Assembly (NCBI RefSeq): GCF_044324785.1
Contig: NZ_CP172127.1
Strand: one strand, 5' to 3'
Origin: Escherichia coli
GTDB taxonomy: Bacteria > Pseudomonadota > Gammaproteobacteria > Enterobacterales > Enterobacteriaceae
DNA: 64,000 nucleotides
Part shown: positions 11,477 through 20,690 of the stretch, piece after piece
Position numbering within the stretch: position 1 is the first letter of the stretch
Layout: each line of letters opens with the position of its first letter
Translations under genes and position numbers: made by a program
The notes under the pieces: generated by a model
Told to the model about the DNA's origin: nothing
Seen by the model: the letters and a program-made list of their open reading frames with translations, nothing else
The model's database searches: none

Positions 11477-14149
11477 CTACAGCAAGCTCTTGACATAACT
11501 GTCAATGTCGCTGATGTATTTTTCTATTCCTGGAACTTCCTTCTCACGAATCAGATGTTCCAGCGTTTCACATAACTGCTTGCCGGGTACCAGATTTAGC
11601 ATGGCAAATACGCCTTTAAGACGATGAGCCGTTTGGGCTAACGCAGCAAAGTCACTGGTTGCTGCTTCAGTATACAGCCTCTTAACATCATCCGGTACTG
11701 TGTCTACAAAGAGCGCATAATAGCCGCTGGCATGGAGTTGCGCATTTTCATCTCCGCCCAGAGGCGATTCTGTCACCTCTTCCTGCGCCAGTTGCACTTC
11801 AATTAATTGTAAGACCGCTTCCTGCATAGCGTTGCTCATATTGAAGTTGACGCACAATTGACCAGGTCCAATTTCCCGTACGCCAGACTCATCATCGCTT
11901 AAAAGCAAGCCAGAGGCAGTAAGATTAGACGGATTATCCGTTAAAAAGATATCATAATCTTGACTAATTAATCTTTCATCGGGTGTGATACAGGTTGCAC
12001 CCCAATTTTCTAACTGGCGAGTGACAATATTCCGAATTTCTGCCGAAGTAACATCCACCATTACGCAGACATCATCCAGTAATCGCTCTTCTTCCTCTTC
12101 AACTTCCGGGTCAGCTGCGAGCATTTTGATATGCACAGAGTAGCGTGTACCAAGCCCATCCCGCGTTTTGATGTTTAAATGACCGCCCAGTTTACGCGCC
12201 AGTTGATCGCTCAGCCAGAATGCCAGCGGGTCCGCCTTGCCATAGCGATCGTTTTGGGTCTGGTTGATAAACGGGAAGTGCAAATTATCCATTTCATGAA
12301 TGCTTACGCCTTCTCCCGTGTCCAGAATGCGGAACGTCAGGCGGTCTTCGGAGGACTCATCCTGATCAACCTCAAGGGTGATTTTTCCCAATTGCGTTGA
12401 GGTCACGGCATATTGCATCAGTAGCAGCAAAATACGTCGTAAGGCATCGCGATCGCCGCGGCGCATATCGTGTGCTTTCAGATGATTGTTAATCAACAGT
12501 TGCAGACCTTTACGCTTGATAGCAGGCAACACTGAAGGCACAACTTCATCAATCAAATCCTGCACAGAGAACAGCACCGTCTCACTTTTCCAGCTATCGT
12601 CCGCAAGCATGTTCGCTAACTGTATTTCATCGACCAGCCGCACCAGCACATCTGCCTGATTCGCCAGTTGTTTGCTTTCCGGGGCGTTGAGTTTAGCCGC
12701 GCTCTCCGCCAGGGACTGTGCGGGTTCTTTCAGCGCATCGCCAATGTTTTTCATAAAGGTCATCCGCCCCTGCTGGTTTTTCTCATACAGACGCTGCGCC
12801 TGCTTGAGTTTCTTGTTTACCAGCACTTCGCGATCCTGATCGCGAATAATGAAAATTTGTGTGCGCGGCGCAACCTGGCTGCGGAACATGCGGATCTCAT
12901 ACAGCTCGTTATTAATCGTCGCCTGAATAATCCCCTGATGCTGTTCCGCCATGGTGGTGATGTTTTGCAGATTCAAATGCGGCAGCAAATGATCGGCAAT
13001 TTTGTTACTTATGACAGTGCGGTTCGATTCCTGATCGTGAACCAGCAGGCCGAGCGGCAGCAGTGAGACTATCTCTTCATTGATTGCCCGTAAAATGCGC
13101 AATTCGTTATTGACCGCCGTGTTGGGTAGACTTTCTGTACTGCGACTGGAGAAATGGCGAAATGTGGTATAGCCAAATAACGCCAGCGCCAGCAAACCGA
13201 TGTTCAGCAGCAGTGGCAGCAGAATGTTTTGCAACGTATCCAGCAATAAGGTGCCATAAGGAACCTGCCAGACCAGTCGCATATCGGTAGAGTTGAGTGC
13301 CGAGGAGATTTCAATCTTCGTACTGTTAAAGTGGATACTGACGCTATCCGTCCCTTCTTTCTCATTATCATTGTTTCCCGTTGCCGTCGCGTCTGGCTCA
13401 AGGCGGAAACTGTCCAGCGGCATACCCGGTGGGATCAAATCATTAATCGGCAGATCAAAAGCCACAACCGTTGCCAGATGTCCCGGCTGGTTGAACGTGG
13501 TACGCAAGGTAAAGTAATGACCGTTCTGCCAGGCCAGGCGGCGCATGTTAGAAAAGCTTTCGCGTTCATCGAGGGCGTTGGCCTGTTGCAACATCTCTGC
13601 ACGACGTGAATCAACAATGTCGCTGACGGTCGATTCTTTAAATCCGGAGGTGAGATCTTTAAGGGGCAGGGTTGAGATCAGCACCAGACTGTTATCCTGA
13701 CCATTAAGGTAATACATCGACCACGGTACATTTTCTGCGCCCCACAATGTGTCCAGATAGGTGGACATCCGTTGAGTCATCTCAAGCGTTGAGTTGTCGT
13801 GAGAGCCAAAGATTAACGCTTCCGTTTTGCGGCGTGGTTTCTCCAGATAGTAGACATCCTGTTTCAGGCGCGTCTCTTGTAAACCTTCGCCGGAGGAGGG
13901 GGAGGTCGTCGCGGCAATGTTGTCGTAGATCTGCCAGGTCACGTAACGCCAGGTATCGACGCGCTTTTGGATAGCGTGGGTAATGTCGACAATCTGGTAA
14001 CTTTTATCTTTCAGCCAGGCGTTAACGGCGCTTTGTACCATTACACCCATCGTCACCAGTAACACAATGATCAACAGTAAAAAGAAGCGGGTAATGCTCC
14101 CCGGTAGGAGTGAAAAGCGGGTCGTGGCCGTTGTCTCTTTCTGACGCAT
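11477..14149 (-). CDS. rcsD: Rcs phosphorelay phosphotransfer protein RcsD (YojN), 890 aa
   Basis: 890-aa membrane protein with a degenerate kinase-like core and a C-terminal HPt domain, 16 bp upstream of rcsB on the same strand. Confidence 0.9.
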   Translation of the reverse strand: MRQKETTATTRFSLLPGSITRFFLLLIIVLLVTMGVMVQSAVNAWLKDKSYQIVDITHAIQKRVDTWRYVTWQIYDNIAATTSPSSGEGLQETRLKQDVYYLEKPRRKTEALIFGSHDNSTLEMTQRMSTYLDTLWGAENVPWSMYYLNGQDNSLVLISTLPLKDLTSGFKESTVSDIVDSRRAEMLQQANALDERESFSNMRRLAWQNGHYFTLRTTFNQPGHLATVVAFDLPINDLIPPGMPLDSFRLEPDATATGNNDNEKEGTDSVSIHFNSTKIEISSALNSTDMRLVWQVPYGTLLLDTLQNILLPLLLNIGLLALALFGYTTFRHFSSRSTESLPNTAVNNELRILRAINEEIVSLLPLGLLVHDQESNRTVISNKIADHLLPHLNLQNITTMAEQHQGIIQATINNELYEIRMFRSQVAPRTQIFIIRDQDREVLVNKKLKQAQRLYEKNQQGRMTFMKNIGDALKEPAQSLAESAAKLNAPESKQLANQADVLVRLVDEIQLANMLADDSWKSETVLFSVQDLIDEVVPSVLPAIKRKGLQLLINNHLKAHDMRRGDRDALRRILLLLMQYAVTSTQLGKITLEVDQDESSEDRLTFRILDTGEGVSIHEMDNLHFPFINQTQNDRYGKADPLAFWLSDQLARKLGGHLNIKTRDGLGTRYSVHIKMLAADPEVEEEEERLLDDVCVMVDVTSAEIRNIVTRQLENWGATCITPDERLISQDYDIFLTDNPSNLTASGLLLSDDESGVREIGPGQLCVNFNMSNAMQEAVLQLIEVQLAQEEVTESPLGGDENAQLHASGYYALFVDTVPDDVKRLYTEAATSDFAALAQTAHRLKGVFAMLNLVPGKQLCETLEHLIREKEVPGIEKYISDIDSYVKSLL

Positions 14150-14461
14150 TCGTGTTTATGACCTGTTAAAACTTCGCGAAGTGATAGGGCAGTATAAAGG
14201 GTACAGTGTGAAATTCCAGACTCTTACCTGATTGATGATTCTCTATTCTCCCGTGATATTTATCATCCTGCATTGGGGAAAATAGATGTACAAGCGCCAT
14301 TTTGCTGTACAAATAACCTACAAAAAGCCCAACGAAATTAATTGCAAATAAACGAAGATTGCTGGAAATTATGCTGATGTTAATTATTTGTGAAATAGTT
14401 AACAAGCGTTATAGTTTTTCTATGGTAGCACAGAATAATGAAAAGTGTGTAAAGAAGGGTA

Positions 14462-14554
14462 AAAAAAAACCGGATGCGAGGCATCCGGTTGAAATAGGGG
14501 TAAACAGACATTCAGAAATGAATGACGGTAATAAATAAAGTTAATGATGATAGC
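14462..14554 (-). ncRNA. micF: micF antisense sRNA (represses ompF translation)
   Basis: The reverse complement reads GCTATCATCATTAACTTTATTTATTACCGTCATTCATTTCTGAATGTCTGTTTACCCCTATTTCAACCGGATGCCTCGCATCCGGTTTTTTTT, recognised as micF with its intrinsic terminator. It is divergent from ompC. Confidence 0.9.
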
Positions 14555-14709
14555 GGGAGTTATTCTAGTTGCGAGTGAAGGTTTTGTTTTGACATTCAGT
14601 GCTGTCAAATACTTAAGAATAAGTTATTGATTTTAACCTTGAATTATTATTGCTTGATGTTAGGTGCTTATTTCGCCATTCCGCAATAATCTTAAAAAGT
14701 TCCCTTCTA

Positions 14710-14769
14710 TTTACATTTTGAAACATCTATAGCGATAAATGAAACATCTTAAAAGTTTTAGTATCATAT
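14710..14769 (+). promoter_or_regulatory. OmpR-P binding sites C1-C2-C3 of the ompC promoter
   Basis: Three tandem 20-bp boxes (TTTACATTTTGAAACATCTA / TAGCGATAAATGAAACATCT / TAAAAGTTTTAGTATCATAT) about 120-180 bp upstream of the ompC ATG. Confidence 0.8.
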
Positions 14770-14873
14770 TCGTGTTGGATTATTCTGCATTTTTGGGGAG
14801 AATGGACTTGCCGACTGATTAATGAGGGTTAATCAGTATGCAGTGGCATAAAAAAGCAAATAAAGGCATATAA

Positions 14874-16016
<1,143 letters not shown>

Positions 16017-16035
16017 TCTCGATTGATATCGAACA

Positions 16036-16058
16036 AAGGGCCTGCGGGCCCTTTTTTC
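16036..16058 (+). terminator. Rho-independent terminator of ompC
   Basis: GC hairpin GGGCC-tgcg-GGCCC followed by TTTTTT. Confidence 0.75.
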
Positions 16059-16127
16059 ATTGTTTTCAGCGTACAAACTCAGTTTTTTGGTGTACTCTTG
16101 CGACCGTTCGCATGAGGATAATCACGT

Positions 16128-17183
16128 ATGGAAATAAGCTTTACCCGCGTGGCACTGCTGGCTGCCGCGCTCTTCTTTGTTGGTTGCGATCAAAAACCAC
16201 AACCCGCCAAAACCCACGCTATTGAAGTTACCGTTCTTGAAGGCAAAACCATGGGTACGTTCTGGCGTGCCAGCATTCCGGGCATTGACGCCAAACGCAG
16301 TGCCGAACTTAAAGAAAAGATTCAGACCCAGCTGGACGCTGACGATCAGCTGCTTTCGACCTATAAAAAAGATTCCGCGCTGATGCGCTTTAACGATTCG
16401 CAAAGTTTATCGCCGTGGCCGGTAAGTGAAGCGATGGCCGATATCGTCACCACCTCGCTGCGCATTGGCGCAAGGACCGATGGTGCGATGGATATAACCG
16501 TCGGGCCGCTGGTGAATCTGTGGGGCTTTGGTCCGGAACAACAGCCGGTTCAAATTCCGAGCCAGGAACAAATTGATGCGATGAAAGCCAAAACCGGCTT
16601 ACAGCACCTGACGGTCATTAATCAGTCGCATCAGCAATATCTGCAAAAAGACCTGCCGGATTTATATGTCGATCTCTCCACCGTCGGCGAAGGCTATGCG
16701 GCGGATCATCTGGCACGCTTGATGGAGCAGGAAGGGATTTCCCGCTATCTGGTGTCGGTGGGCGGCGCGCTGAACAGCCGTGGTATGAACGGTGAAGGCC
16801 TGCCGTGGCGGGTAGCGATTCAAAAACCAACCGATAAAGAAAACGCGGTTCAGGCTGTGGTGGATATCAACGGTCATGGGATTAGCACCTCTGGCAGCTA
16901 CCGTAACTATTACGAACTGGACGGCAAACGTCTTTCCCATGTTATCGATCCGCAAACCGGGCGTCCCATCGAACACAATCTGGTATCCGTGACGGTGATT
17001 GCCCCGACGGCGCTGGAAGCCGATGCCTGGGATACTGGCTTGATGGTACTGGGGCCGGAGAAAGCCAAAGAGGTTGTTCGCCGGGAAGGGCTGGCGGTCT
17101 ACATGATCACCAAAGAAGGTGATAGCTTTAAAACCTGGATGTCGCCGCAGTTTAAAAGCTTCCTTATCAGCGAAAAAAATTAA
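16128..17183 (+). CDS. apbE: FAD:protein FMN transferase lipoprotein ApbE, 351 aa
   Basis: Lipoprotein signal with lipobox (LFFVGC), ApbE-family length and position downstream of ompC. Confidence 0.88.
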   Translation: MEISFTRVALLAAALFFVGCDQKPQPAKTHAIEVTVLEGKTMGTFWRASIPGIDAKRSAELKEKIQTQLDADDQLLSTYKKDSALMRFNDSQSLSPWPVSEAMADIVTTSLRIGARTDGAMDITVGPLVNLWGFGPEQQPVQIPSQEQIDAMKAKTGLQHLTVINQSHQQYLQKDLPDLYVDLSTVGEGYAADHLARLMEQEGISRYLVSVGGALNSRGMNGEGLPWRVAIQKPTDKENAVQAVVDINGHGISTSGSYRNYYELDGKRLSHVIDPQTGRPIEHNLVSVTVIAPTALEADAWDTGLMVLGPEKAKEVVRREGLAVYMITKEGDSFKTWMSPQFKSFLISEKN

Positions 17184-17189
17184 AGCGCA
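17177..17189 (+). promoter_or_regulatory. Ada box (AAAnnAAAGCGCA) of the ada promoter
   Basis: aaattAAAGCGCA lies about 70 bp upstream of the ada ATG and overlaps the apbE stop codon. Confidence 0.7.
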
Positions 17190-17256
17190 AGATTGTTGGT
17201 TTTTGCGTGATGGTGACCGGGCAGACTAAAGGCTATCCTTAACCAGGGAGCTGATT

Positions 17257-18321
17257 ATGAAAAACGCCACATGCTTAACTGACGATCAACGCTGGCAATC
17301 TGTCTTAGCCCGCGACCCGAATGCCGACGGCGAATTCGTTTTCGCCGTGCGCACCACGGGCATCTTTTGCCGTCCGTCTTGCCGAGCCAGACATGCCTTG
17401 AGGGAAAATGTCTCCTTCTACGCAAATGCCAGCGAGGCACTGGCCGCCGGATTTCGCCCCTGCAAACGTTGTCAGCCAGACAAAGCCAATCCCCGGCAAC
17501 ATCGCCTTGATAAAATTACCCACGCCTGCCGACTTCTGGAACAGGAAACGCCTGTAACGCTGGAAACCTTAGCCGACCAGGTGGCGATGAGTCCATTTCA
17601 TTTGCATCGGTTGTTTAAAGCGACTACCGGAATGACGCCGAAAGCCTGGCAACAGACCTGGCGCGCTCGTCGTTTGCGCGAGTCGTTAGCGAAAGGGGAG
17701 AGCGTGACGACGTCTATTCTTAACGCCGGATTCCCCGACAGCAGCAGTTACTACCGCAAAGCTGACGAAACGCTGGGCATGACGGCTAAACAATTCCGTC
17801 ACGGTGGCGAAAATCTGGCGGTGCGTTACGCGCTGGCTGATTGTGAGCTGGGTCGTTGCCTGGTGGCAGAAAGCGAGCGGGGGATTTGCGCGATATTGCT
17901 GGGCGATGATGACGCGACACTAATCAGCGAGTTGCAGCAGATGTTTCCCGCTGCCGACAACGCGCCTGCCGATCTGACGTTTCAGCAACATGTGCGTGAA
18001 GTGATCGCCAGCCTCAATCAACGCGATACGCCGCTGACGTTACCGCTGGACATTCGCGGCACTGCTTTTCAGCAACAAGTCTGGCAGGCACTGCGCACTA
18101 TACCTTGTGGTGAAACCGTCAGTTATCAGCAACTGGCGAACGCCATCGGCAAACCGAAAGCGGTACGGGCCGTTGCCAGCGCCTGTGCCGCCAACAAGCT
18201 CGCTATCGTAATACCCTGTCATCGGGTAGTCCGTGGTGATGGCACACTTTCCGGTTACCGCTGGGGCGTGTCGCGTAAAGCGCAACTGCTGCGTCGCGAA
18301 GCTGAAAATGAGGAGAGGTAA
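17257..18321 (+). CDS. ada: Bifunctional transcriptional activator / O6-methylguanine-DNA methyltransferase Ada, 354 aa
   Basis: N-terminal Zn-Cys4 methylphosphotriester domain (CRPSCRARH...CKRC), AraC-type HTH, and a C-terminal MGMT active site (IVIPCHRVV). Confidence 0.93.
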   Translation: MKNATCLTDDQRWQSVLARDPNADGEFVFAVRTTGIFCRPSCRARHALRENVSFYANASEALAAGFRPCKRCQPDKANPRQHRLDKITHACRLLEQETPVTLETLADQVAMSPFHLHRLFKATTGMTPKAWQQTWRARRLRESLAKGESVTTSILNAGFPDSSSYYRKADETLGMTAKQFRHGGENLAVRYALADCELGRCLVAESERGICAILLGDDDATLISELQQMFPAADNAPADLTFQQHVREVIASLNQRDTPLTLPLDIRGTAFQQQVWQALRTIPCGETVSYQQLANAIGKPKAVRAVASACAANKLAIVIPCHRVVRGDGTLSGYRWGVSRKAQLLRREAENEER

Positions 18322-18971
18322 TGTTGGATCTGTTTGCCGATGCTGAACCGTGGCAAGAGCCACTGGCGGCTGGTGCGGTGATTTTGCACCGTTTTGCTTT
18401 CAACGCTGCGGAGCAACTGATCCGCGATATTAATGACGTTGCCAGCCAGTCGCCGTTTCGCCAGATGGTCACCCCCGGGGGATATACCATGTCTGTGGCG
18501 ATGACTAACTGTGGGAATCTGGGCTGGACGACCAATCGGCAAGGTTATCTCTATTCGCCCATTGATCCGCAAACAAATAAACCGTGGCCCGCCATGCCAC
18601 AAAGCTTTCATGATTTATGTCAACGTGCGGCTACGGCGGCGGGCTATCCAGATTTCCAGCCAGATGCTTGTCTTATCAACCGCTACGCTCCTGGCGCGAA
18701 ACTGTCGCTGCATCAGGATAAAGACGAACCGGATCTGCGCGCGCCGATTGTTTCTGTTTCTCTGGGCTTACCCGCGATTTTTCAATTTGGCGGCCTGAAA
18801 CGAAATGATCCGTTAAAACGATTGTTGTTGGAACATGGCGACGTTGTGGTGTGGGGCGGTGAGTCGCGGCTGTTTTATCATGGGATTCAACCGTTGAAAG
18901 CGGGGGTTCATCCACTCACCGCCGACTGCCGCTACAACCTGACATTCCGTCAGGCAGGTAAAAAAGAATAA
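18321..18971 (+). CDS. alkB: Fe(II)/2-oxoglutarate-dependent DNA/RNA demethylase AlkB, 216 aa
   Basis: MLDLFADAEPWQEPLAAGAVILHRFA...; its start overlaps the ada stop (ATGA), the usual ada-alkB arrangement. Confidence 0.93.
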   Translation: MLDLFADAEPWQEPLAAGAVILHRFAFNAAEQLIRDINDVASQSPFRQMVTPGGYTMSVAMTNCGNLGWTTNRQGYLYSPIDPQTNKPWPAMPQSFHDLCQRAATAAGYPDFQPDACLINRYAPGAKLSLHQDKDEPDLRAPIVSVSLGLPAIFQFGGLKRNDPLKRLLLEHGDVVVWGGESRLFYHGIQPLKAGVHPLTADCRYNLTFRQAGKKE

Positions 18972-19046
18972 AAATAAGAATTATTATTGCTGTGTGCGCG
19001 AAGATGTTTAAACTGCGGGCTGTAATTCATTGTCCGGGTTTTCTGC

Positions 19047-20690
19047 ATGGAACTTCTTGTACTTGTCTGGCGGCAGTATCGCTGGCCATTTATCAGTGTG
19101 ATGGCGCTAAGCCTCGCCAGTGCGGCATTAGGCATTGGCTTAATTGCTTTTATCAATCAGCGCCTTATCGAAACGGCGGATACCAGTCTGCTGGTGTTGC
19201 CGGAGTTTCTGGGATTATTGCTGCTGTTGATGGCAGTCACTCTCGGATCGCAACTGGCGCTCACCACTTTGGGGCATCACTTCGTTTACCGACTGCGTAG
19301 TGAATTTATCAAGCGGATTCTGGATACCCACGTCGAGCGCATTGAACAACTTGGTAGCGCCTCGTTGCTGGCGGGGTTAACCAGCGATGTGCGCAATATC
19401 ACCATTGCTTTTGTGCGTCTGCCGGAACTGGTGCAGGGGATCATTCTCACTATCGGTTCAGCGGCGTATTTGTGGATGCTGTCGGGCAAAATGTTGCTGG
19501 TAACGGCTATCTGGATGGCAGTCACCATCTGGGGTGGTTTTGTACTGGTGGCGCGGGTGTACAAACACATGGCGACCCTGCGTGAAACCGAAGACAAGCT
19601 GTACACGGATTTTCAAACCGTACTCGAAGGGCGCAAAGAGCTGACTCTGAACCGGGAACGCGCCGAGTATGTGTTTAACAACCTCTACATTCCTGATGCG
19701 CAAGAGTATCGCCATCATATTATTCGCGCAGACACCTTCCATCTTAGTGCCGTGAACTGGTCAAACATCATGATGCTGGGCGCAATCGGCCTGGTGTTCT
19801 GGATGGCGAACAGTCTCGGTTGGGCTGATACCAACGTTGCCGCGACCTATTCGTTGACGCTGTTATTCCTGCGTACGCCGCTGCTTTCGGCGGTTGGCGC
19901 ATTACCGACGCTGCTGACGGCGCAGGTGGCGTTTAACAAGCTGAACAAATTCGCGCTCGCACCTTTCAAAGCAGAGTTTCCACGCCCGCAGGCGTTTCCC
20001 AACTGGCAAACGCTGGAGCTGCGTAACGTGACGTTTGCTTATCAGGATAATGCGTTTTCCGTTGGGCCGATTAACCTCACCATTAAACGTGGCGAGCTGC
20101 TGTTTCTGATTGGTGGCAACGGTAGTGGAAAATCGACGCTGGCGATGTTGCTGACGGGCTTGTATCAGCCACAAAGCGGCGAAATCTTGCTGGATGGCAA
20201 ACCTGTCAGCGGCGAACAACCGGAAGATTATCGCAAACTGTTTTCGGCAGTGTTTACCGATGTCTGGCTGTTTGATCAACTGCTGGGGCCGGAGGGGCAA
20301 CCCGCTAACCCGCAACTGGTTGAGAAGTGGCTGGCGCAGCTGAAAATGGCTCATAAGCTTGAGTTAAGCAACGGGCGTATTGTTAACCTGAAGTTATCAA
20401 AAGGGCAGAAAAAACGCGTGGCGCTGTTGCTGGCGCTGGCAGAAGAACGCGATATTATCCTGCTGGATGAATGGGCGGCGGATCAGGACCCACACTTCCG
20501 TCGTGAGTTTTATCAGGTGTTGCTGCCGCTGATGCAGGAGATGGGTAAAACGATTTTCGCCATCAGTCATGATGATCATTACTTTATCCACGCCGACCGC
20601 CTGCTGGAAATGCGCAACGGGCAACTTAGCGAGCTGACGGGCGAAGAGCGCGATGCCGCTTCGCGTGATGCTGTTGCCCGGACGGCATAA
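19047..20690 (+). CDS. yojI: ABC exporter YojI (fused permease-ATPase; microcin J25 efflux), 547 aa
   Basis: N-terminal six-TM domain plus a C-terminal NBD with Walker A (GGNGSGKST), ABC signature (LSKGQKKR) and Walker B (ILLLDE). Confidence 0.88.

Follow-up and report, generated by a model that had tools for sequence, protein, structure and literature searches.

The window analyzed here, a 64-kb (64,000-nucleotide) stretch of Escherichia coli DNA, carries five genes on the plus strand in the order ompC-apbE-ada-alkB-yojI. The ompC gene occupies 14889-16016, apbE (also called ftp; 351 codons plus a TAA stop) 16128..17183, ada 17257..18321, alkB 18321..18971, with its start overlapping the stop of ada (TAATG), and yojI 19047-20690. 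The products of all five matched NCBIfam equivalog models (OmpC, ApbE, Ada, AlkB, and YojI), with scores of 723 bits for apbE (NF007774) and 750 bits for ada (NF011964), and the gene identities agree with the RefSeq annotation of K-12 and of strain N3. Upstream of ompC, rcsD and micF lie on the minus strand, and an Rfam search of positions 14000-19500 returned MicF as its sole match. Between 16900 and 17500 the sequence was 100% identical to strain N3 and approximately 96% identical to K-12, and this region was matched in 5421 of 5426 complete E. coli genomes. The ada and alkB genes are known members of the Ada regulon and stand directly downstream of an Ada site; Ada-dependent induction of ada transcription by methylating agents is established for K-12 (PMC6505713, PMC8643705). 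The Ada protein encoded here retains C38, R45, C69, R71, F114, H115, and R118 in its N-terminal domain, as seen by alignment to PDB entries 1WPK, 1ZGW, and 1U8B. Among these residues, R45 and R71 touch the A box of the Ada site, F114, H115, and R118 touch the B box, and C38 is the sensor cysteine (PMC3788762).

On the upstream side, apbE is separated from ompC by an intrinsic terminator on the plus strand (16035..16062), with an 8-bp G+C-rich stem at 16035-16054 followed by a T run (AAAGGGCCTGCGGGCCCTTT and TTTTCATTGT). In a published tiling array, the apbE segment starts only about 25 nt upstream of the apbE ATG (PMC6505713 supplement). The strong ompC terminator and the start of the apbE array segment argue against taking the earlier note's "ompC-side apbE transcript" to mean an ompC-apbE cotranscript. 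Expression of apbE on the array was weak but detectable, with a log2 value of 10.3 versus a floor of 9.0 (PMC6505713). The gene probably has a weak promoter of its own, located past the ompC terminator.

The 3' end of apbE reads AGC GAA AAA AAT TAA, with AAT at 17178-17180 and TAA at 17181-17183. Across this end lies the classical Ada box, AAANNAAAGCGCA, on the plus strand at 17177..17189 in the form AAATTAAAGCGCA, so the earlier note, which had the box begin within the last codons of apbE and span its TAA stop, was correct to the base. In the Ada recognition site, six bases separate an A box (AAT) from a B box (GCAA) (PMC3788762, PMC4437013), and this AAT-N6-GCAA feature of ada- and aidB-type Ada promoters was present as AAT (17178-80), TAAAGC, and GCAA (17187-90). 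The final sense codon of apbE (Asn351, 17178..17180) serves as the A box, the stop codon TAA (17181..17183) provides the first three bases of the 6-nt spacer TAAAGC between the A and B boxes, and the B box, GCAA at 17187-17190, starts 4 nt past the stop and runs into an extension that is conserved across species (GCAAGATTG; box and extension, 17187..17195; all on the plus strand). Of the Ada box proper, seven bases are within the coding sequence and stop of apbE; for the Ada/alpha-CTD site of roughly 20 nt, the overlap is about 9 nt. The gap between apbE and ada is 73 nt (17184-17256), with the ada ATG at 17257, a distance that the earlier note also had right. The exact 13-mer occurs only once in the 64-kb window, compared with 0.08 copies expected from shuffled sequences. 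When one mismatch was allowed, the Ada box was not enriched in the window (4 observed versus 2.8 expected); thus, it is the position of the match, and not the motif alone, that gives it meaning.

Downstream of the box, a conserved GGTTTTT tract followed by TTGCGT forms a candidate -35 region of P_ada (17198..17208, plus strand), with the tract marked by conservation and the hexamer a putative assignment. A conserved CA.A.T pattern places the candidate -10 region at 17222..17232 on the same strand, where the hexamer may be either CAGACT (17222-27) or TAAAGG (17227-32). Comparison with K-12 and allele counts revealed an A/C polymorphism at 17225, inside the candidate -10 region, with A in the present sequence and C in K-12. 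The array segment of apbE, which was unchanged, extends over U00096.2 2308447-2309581 on the minus strand (PMC6505713 supplement), and the transcript induced by MNNG covers ada, alkB, and yojI (PMC6505713). After coordinate conversion, the apbE segment would run from approximately 16103 to approximately 17237 in the window, which would put the boundary of the induced segment at approximately 17237 and the probable start zone of ada transcription at 17233..17239 (plus strand). With a start in this zone, the conserved block 17178-17196 would fall at about -59 to -41, which would be consistent with the location between -60 and -40 that Landini and Volkert reportedly assigned to the Ada/alpha-CTD site in 1995; in promoters of this type, the site is expected upstream of a weak -35 region. 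The Shine-Dalgarno (SD) sequence of ada, GGGAG (17246..17250, plus strand), precedes the ATG by 6 nt, and its GGAG is conserved across species.

We compared the ada loci of 80 species-level Enterobacteriaceae genomes from the genera Escherichia, Citrobacter, Salmonella, Enterobacter, Kluyvera, Kosakonia, Raoultella, and Klebsiella. The order ompC-apbE-ada-alkB was kept in all 80 loci, and in all 80 the box occupied positions -4 to +8, counted from the first base of the apbE stop. The two genes apbE and ada were 66 to 83 nt apart, except in one locus with an insertion. The sequence AATTAAANNGCAAG was present as one copy per locus in 79 of the 80 species, each time at the apbE stop, with the exception carrying CAT for AAT, and the terminal apbE codon was accordingly AAT in 79 of 80. 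Among the 80 species, A17179, T17180, TAAA at 17181-84, and GCAAG at 17187-91 did not vary at all, and the most conserved block of the interval was AATTAAAnnGCAAG, which ranked ahead of the adjacent apbE codons. In E. coli itself, a 45-nt megablast query across the box was matched in 3847 of 5426 genomes, a shortfall that we suspect reflects low-complexity masking of the A run plus single-nucleotide polymorphisms (SNPs) at 17196, 17206, or 17208. SNPs at these three positions did occur in the sampled strains, none of which varied within the box itself.

The fixation of the last two apbE codons exceeded that of comparable positions. All 71 full-length apbE genes ended with AAT for the terminal asparagine, whereas six other asparagine columns of the gene (conserved at 95% or more) used both AAT and AAC, the major codon accounting for a fraction of 0.5 to 0.86, and only 2 of 53 conserved two-codon columns were as fixed as the terminal AAT. 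The apbE stop was TAA in 80 of 80 species; the stops of ada were divided among TAA, TGA, and TAG (52, 23, and 4), as were those of alkB (61, 14, and 3). Since AAT and TAA are frozen while other asparagine codons and the stops of ada and alkB vary, the proposal of the earlier note that promoter and coding constraints are superimposed in this short interval is supported. Shared ancestry could account for part of the invariance of AAT-TAA; the mixed control codons argue against this, as a comparison of columns without a formal phylogenetic test. At the protein level, the asparagine was found at the terminus in 111 of 111 clusters of Enterobacteriaceae-type ApbE. ApbE relatives with less than 50% identity had C-terminal tails of differing sequence and length, and N was the last residue in only 8 of 143. 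This outgroup came from an exhaustive search of representatives; a word-indexed search had given close Enterobacteriaceae relatives only. In the two nearest outgroup apbE genes, the next gene was an unknown gene in one case and nqrM in the other, and not ada. Judging from these sequences, the terminal asparagine is dispensable for the ApbE family.

Taken together, these results identify the interval, with high probability, as the canonical methyl-Ada-activated sigma-70 promoter from which the ada-alkB operon is transcribed, set directly against the end of apbE; we met no evidence contradicting this identity. Methylated Ada reads AAT and GCAA at their six-base separation and recruits RNA polymerase. 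The overlapping register probably arose once, in the ancestor of the Enterobacteriaceae, and has since been maintained by selection that acts on the DNA as such, beyond what the ApbE protein alone would impose. Bacteria often have short intergenic gaps and promoters that extend into upstream genes, and the overlap could on these grounds be a product of chance compaction with no selective meaning. We regard this as highly improbable, given that the register was the same in all 80 species and that AAT and TAA were fixed where synonymous alternatives are used freely elsewhere.

No terminator-like site was detected at 17184-17256 in the window, and none was detected between apbE and ada in any of the 80 species, which bears out the earlier note's observation that no intrinsic terminator follows apbE. 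The interval folded no better than shuffled sequences (z = 0.08). Its best local hairpin, at 17185-17208, in which the B-box region pairs with TTTTGCGT, had a predicted energy of -8.4 kcal/mol with two G-U pairs, and was followed by GATGGTGAC, with no T run or U tail. There was essentially no conserved RNA structure in the interval, with an RNAalifold consensus energy of -1.29 kcal/mol. The intergenic RNA is G-rich, with a C/G ratio of 0.57 to 0.8, and is therefore a poor loading site for Rho, whose terminators call for about 80 nt of C-rich, G-poor RNA that is neither structured nor translated. The early ada reading frame (its first 250 nt), behind its good SD sequence, is C-rich, with C/G ratios of 1.3 to 2.15 across 17240-17520. 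Because intrinsic terminators are absent from all 80 species, read-through from apbE into ada, which the earlier note held to be possible, would, as far as the sequence can tell, meet no visible barrier, and polymerases leaving apbE would be expected to move into the ada promoter. When single molecules were counted at the native locus, an uninduced cell held approximately one Ada, and AlkB was missing from most cells (PMC8643705, PMC6818145). Thus, productive read-through can be only a very small fraction of apbE transcription, or zero, and the share of apbE polymerases that enter ada productively in uninduced cells would have to be tiny.

Whether apbE transcripts contribute to ada expression was weighed against the possibility that they end within the junction. 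Full-text literature searches found no relevant discussion of apbE-ada cotranscription; the supplements of the SMRT-Cappable-seq study and of an eLife study of 3' ends do not mention apbE or ada, and the OperonSEQer supplement was uninformative. Under one reading, transcripts of apbE would cross an unoccupied P_ada into ada-alkB and supply the rare basal Ada that primes the adaptive response. This agrees with the missing terminator, the G-rich gap, and the good SD sequence of ada. RNA polymerase is said to bind P_ada only with methylated Ada (PMC4437013), which would leave room for another source of basal expression, and models take a constant basal rate from P_ada as an assumption (PMC6818145). 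The reading nevertheless seems unlikely, in that the scarcity of Ada and AlkB in uninduced cells limits read-through to a small fraction of even the weak apbE transcription, and in that an extra ada copy, expressed from P_ada on a MiniF plasmid of very low copy number, brought Ada up far enough to abolish the subpopulation with a delayed response (PMC6818145). The MiniF result suggests that basal ada expression needs no upstream apbE, with read-through on the plasmid also possible. Somewhat less unlikely, but still tentative, is an arrangement in which apbE transcripts end without a canonical hairpin-U terminator, either by Rho action in the C-rich early ada reading frame at times of poor translation or by trimming of the 3' end as far as the weak hairpin at 17185-17208. 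The climb in the C/G ratio at the start of ada fits the Rho route, and the very low basal levels of Ada and AlkB despite the lack of a terminator fit both. However, the strong SD sequence 6 nt from the ATG should couple translation to transcription and shield the RNA from Rho, and the hairpin is both weak and not conserved as a structure.

If RNA polymerase does not bind P_ada without methyl-Ada and apbE lacks a terminator in all 80 species, basal Ada could partly be a product of read-through. We consider it doubtful, even more so than read-through in general, that the basal, Poisson-distributed Ada comes in part from occasional apbE read-through instead of leaky firing of P_ada. Whether a cell answers alkylation damage promptly or turns into a transient mutator is decided by these rare basal Ada molecules. 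If the proposal were true, a neighboring housekeeping gene, apbE, would set the noise of the adaptive response, and the tight, conserved fit of the Ada site to the apbE stop would belong to the design. The source of basal Ada, which governs cell-to-cell heterogeneity in alkylation repair, has so far been assumed and not mapped; with no terminator at the junction, apbE read-through is a candidate for it that can be tested.

We also considered masking of the ada SD sequence in read-through RNA, in which apbE codons at 17157-17164 (AGCUUCCU) would pair with the SD region at 17245-17252 (AGGGAGCU), so that only transcripts begun at P_ada would be translated. The helix appeared in both the minimum-free-energy and the centroid folds of 17150-17270. 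The overall fold was, however, no better than that of shuffles, as already noted, and over 37 species the helix was 72.6% paired, the same as the shuffled mean (72.6%), with 297 of 500 shuffles scoring as high. When the partner was slid by +1, 74% was paired, and RNAalifold did not predict the helix. With no covariation and an equal slid control, masking is hardly credible and was rejected, the helix being what pyrimidine-rich Phe-Leu codons are expected to form with a purine-rich SD sequence.

The promoter itself, a textbook case of dependence on an activator, is already known: it is P_ada, and not a relative of P_ada. The E. coli K-12 MG1655 promoter is at the same locus upstream of ada-alkB, and has the same Ada box, with the same A and B boxes at the same spacing; within the 73-nt intergenic sequence, a single base differs (17225, A here versus C in MG1655), and the remaining difference is strain background. 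The Ada box is reportedly due to Teo et al. and to Nakabeppu and Sekiguchi in 1986, the A and B boxes to He et al. in 2005, and the AAT-N6-GCAA feature to Landini and Volkert in 1995. In the searchable literature, we found no description of the Ada box as overlapping the apbE stop; apbE was named later than the work on the ada promoter. What the present comparison would add is a small comparative detail, read from sequence, namely, that the A box is the codon of Asn351 and the stop lies in the spacer, with both frozen across 80 Enterobacteriaceae species. The junction shows cleanly, in a natural setting, how a downstream promoter can constrain a protein terminus and a stop codon. Additionally, it calls for caution in strain construction when the 3' end of apbE is tagged or deleted or when ada-alkB is replaced "from the promoter."

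Related promoters share this logic to different degrees. The ada promoter of Salmonella enterica, of the form GAATTAAAACGCA, has the same register on the apbE stop, and two loci of our set, L025 and L026, carry the published form exactly (PMC3788762). It differs from the present sequence in the first base of the box and in the base 5' of the B box, and its gap is 80 nt; the Ada protein of Salmonella reportedly activates less strongly (PMC3788762). The aidB and alkA promoters, both outside the window, share the A/B box logic with ada. They have A at the base 5' of the B box, where the present sequence has C, a difference reported to raise the affinity of Ada at ada approximately 10-fold (PMC3788762). 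At the alkA promoter, the Ada site is nearer to the -35 region than it is at ada. More generally, the junction resembles promoters inside the 3' end of an upstream gene on the same strand, a general class and not a family, in which regulatory DNA is shared with coding sequence and no terminator stands between the genes.

The inferred -10 region of the ada promoter (P_ada; 17222-17232) carries an A/C polymorphism at 17225, where the window reads CAGACT and the reference strain K-12 MG1655 reads CAGCCT. An exact 41-mer of the window allele was found in 3057 of the 5426 complete E. coli genomes, while the corresponding K-12 41-mer was exact in 1186 of the 5426. The A at this position is nearer TATAAT than the C of K-12 and, in the column conservation of the species loci, was present in all six of the other Escherichia lineages. 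Thus, the K-12 allele, which was the substrate of the classic promoter work on P_ada, is a minority allele and probably the derived one. The apbE-ada junction region (16900-17500) reached at least 99% identity with a single complete genome, that of strain N3, and showed 95 to 99% identity with most others. The 375-amino-acid OmpC of the window (14889-16016) was 91% identical to K-12 OmpC.

A further difference, this time between genera, was observed immediately 5' of the B box (GCAA, 17187-17190). Among the ada loci compared (L009 to L082), the base at 17186 is C in Escherichia (AAAGC|GCAA), whereas most Enterobacteriaceae have an A (AAAAA|GCAA); a C before GCAA also occurred in a few other lineages, some of them with a different base preceding it. 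Since a C at this position is reported to increase the affinity of Ada approximately 10-fold (PMC3788762), the autoregulatory gain of ada may differ between genera. In the same loci, a conserved inverted repeat of short length (17187-17196) has the B box as its left arm. Most genera share the form GCAA-GA-TTGC, and E. coli has GCAAGATTGT. The repeat is too short to act as an RNA hairpin; one possible explanation is that the second helix-turn-helix of Ada, or RNA polymerase, makes contacts there.

In the Citrobacter sedlakii locus (L024), an insertion of approximately 150 nucleotides (about 2340-2500 of that locus) separates the conserved ada core promoter from the ada SD, giving an apbE-ada gap of 227 nucleotides compared with 66 to 83 in the other loci. 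The Ada box of this locus still lies on the apbE stop codon.

Downstream, the ada stop codon overlaps the alkB start in the window (TAATG, 18319-18323), and in most other genera a few nucleotides separate the two coding matches, as judged from the ends of the tblastn matches. No terminator-like site was found on the plus strand of the alkB-yojI interval (18971-19047), and a tiling-array study reported a single MNNG-induced segment covering ada, alkB, and yojI (PMC6505713). Therefore, the MNNG-induced ada transcript may run into yojI, the microcin J25 efflux gene.
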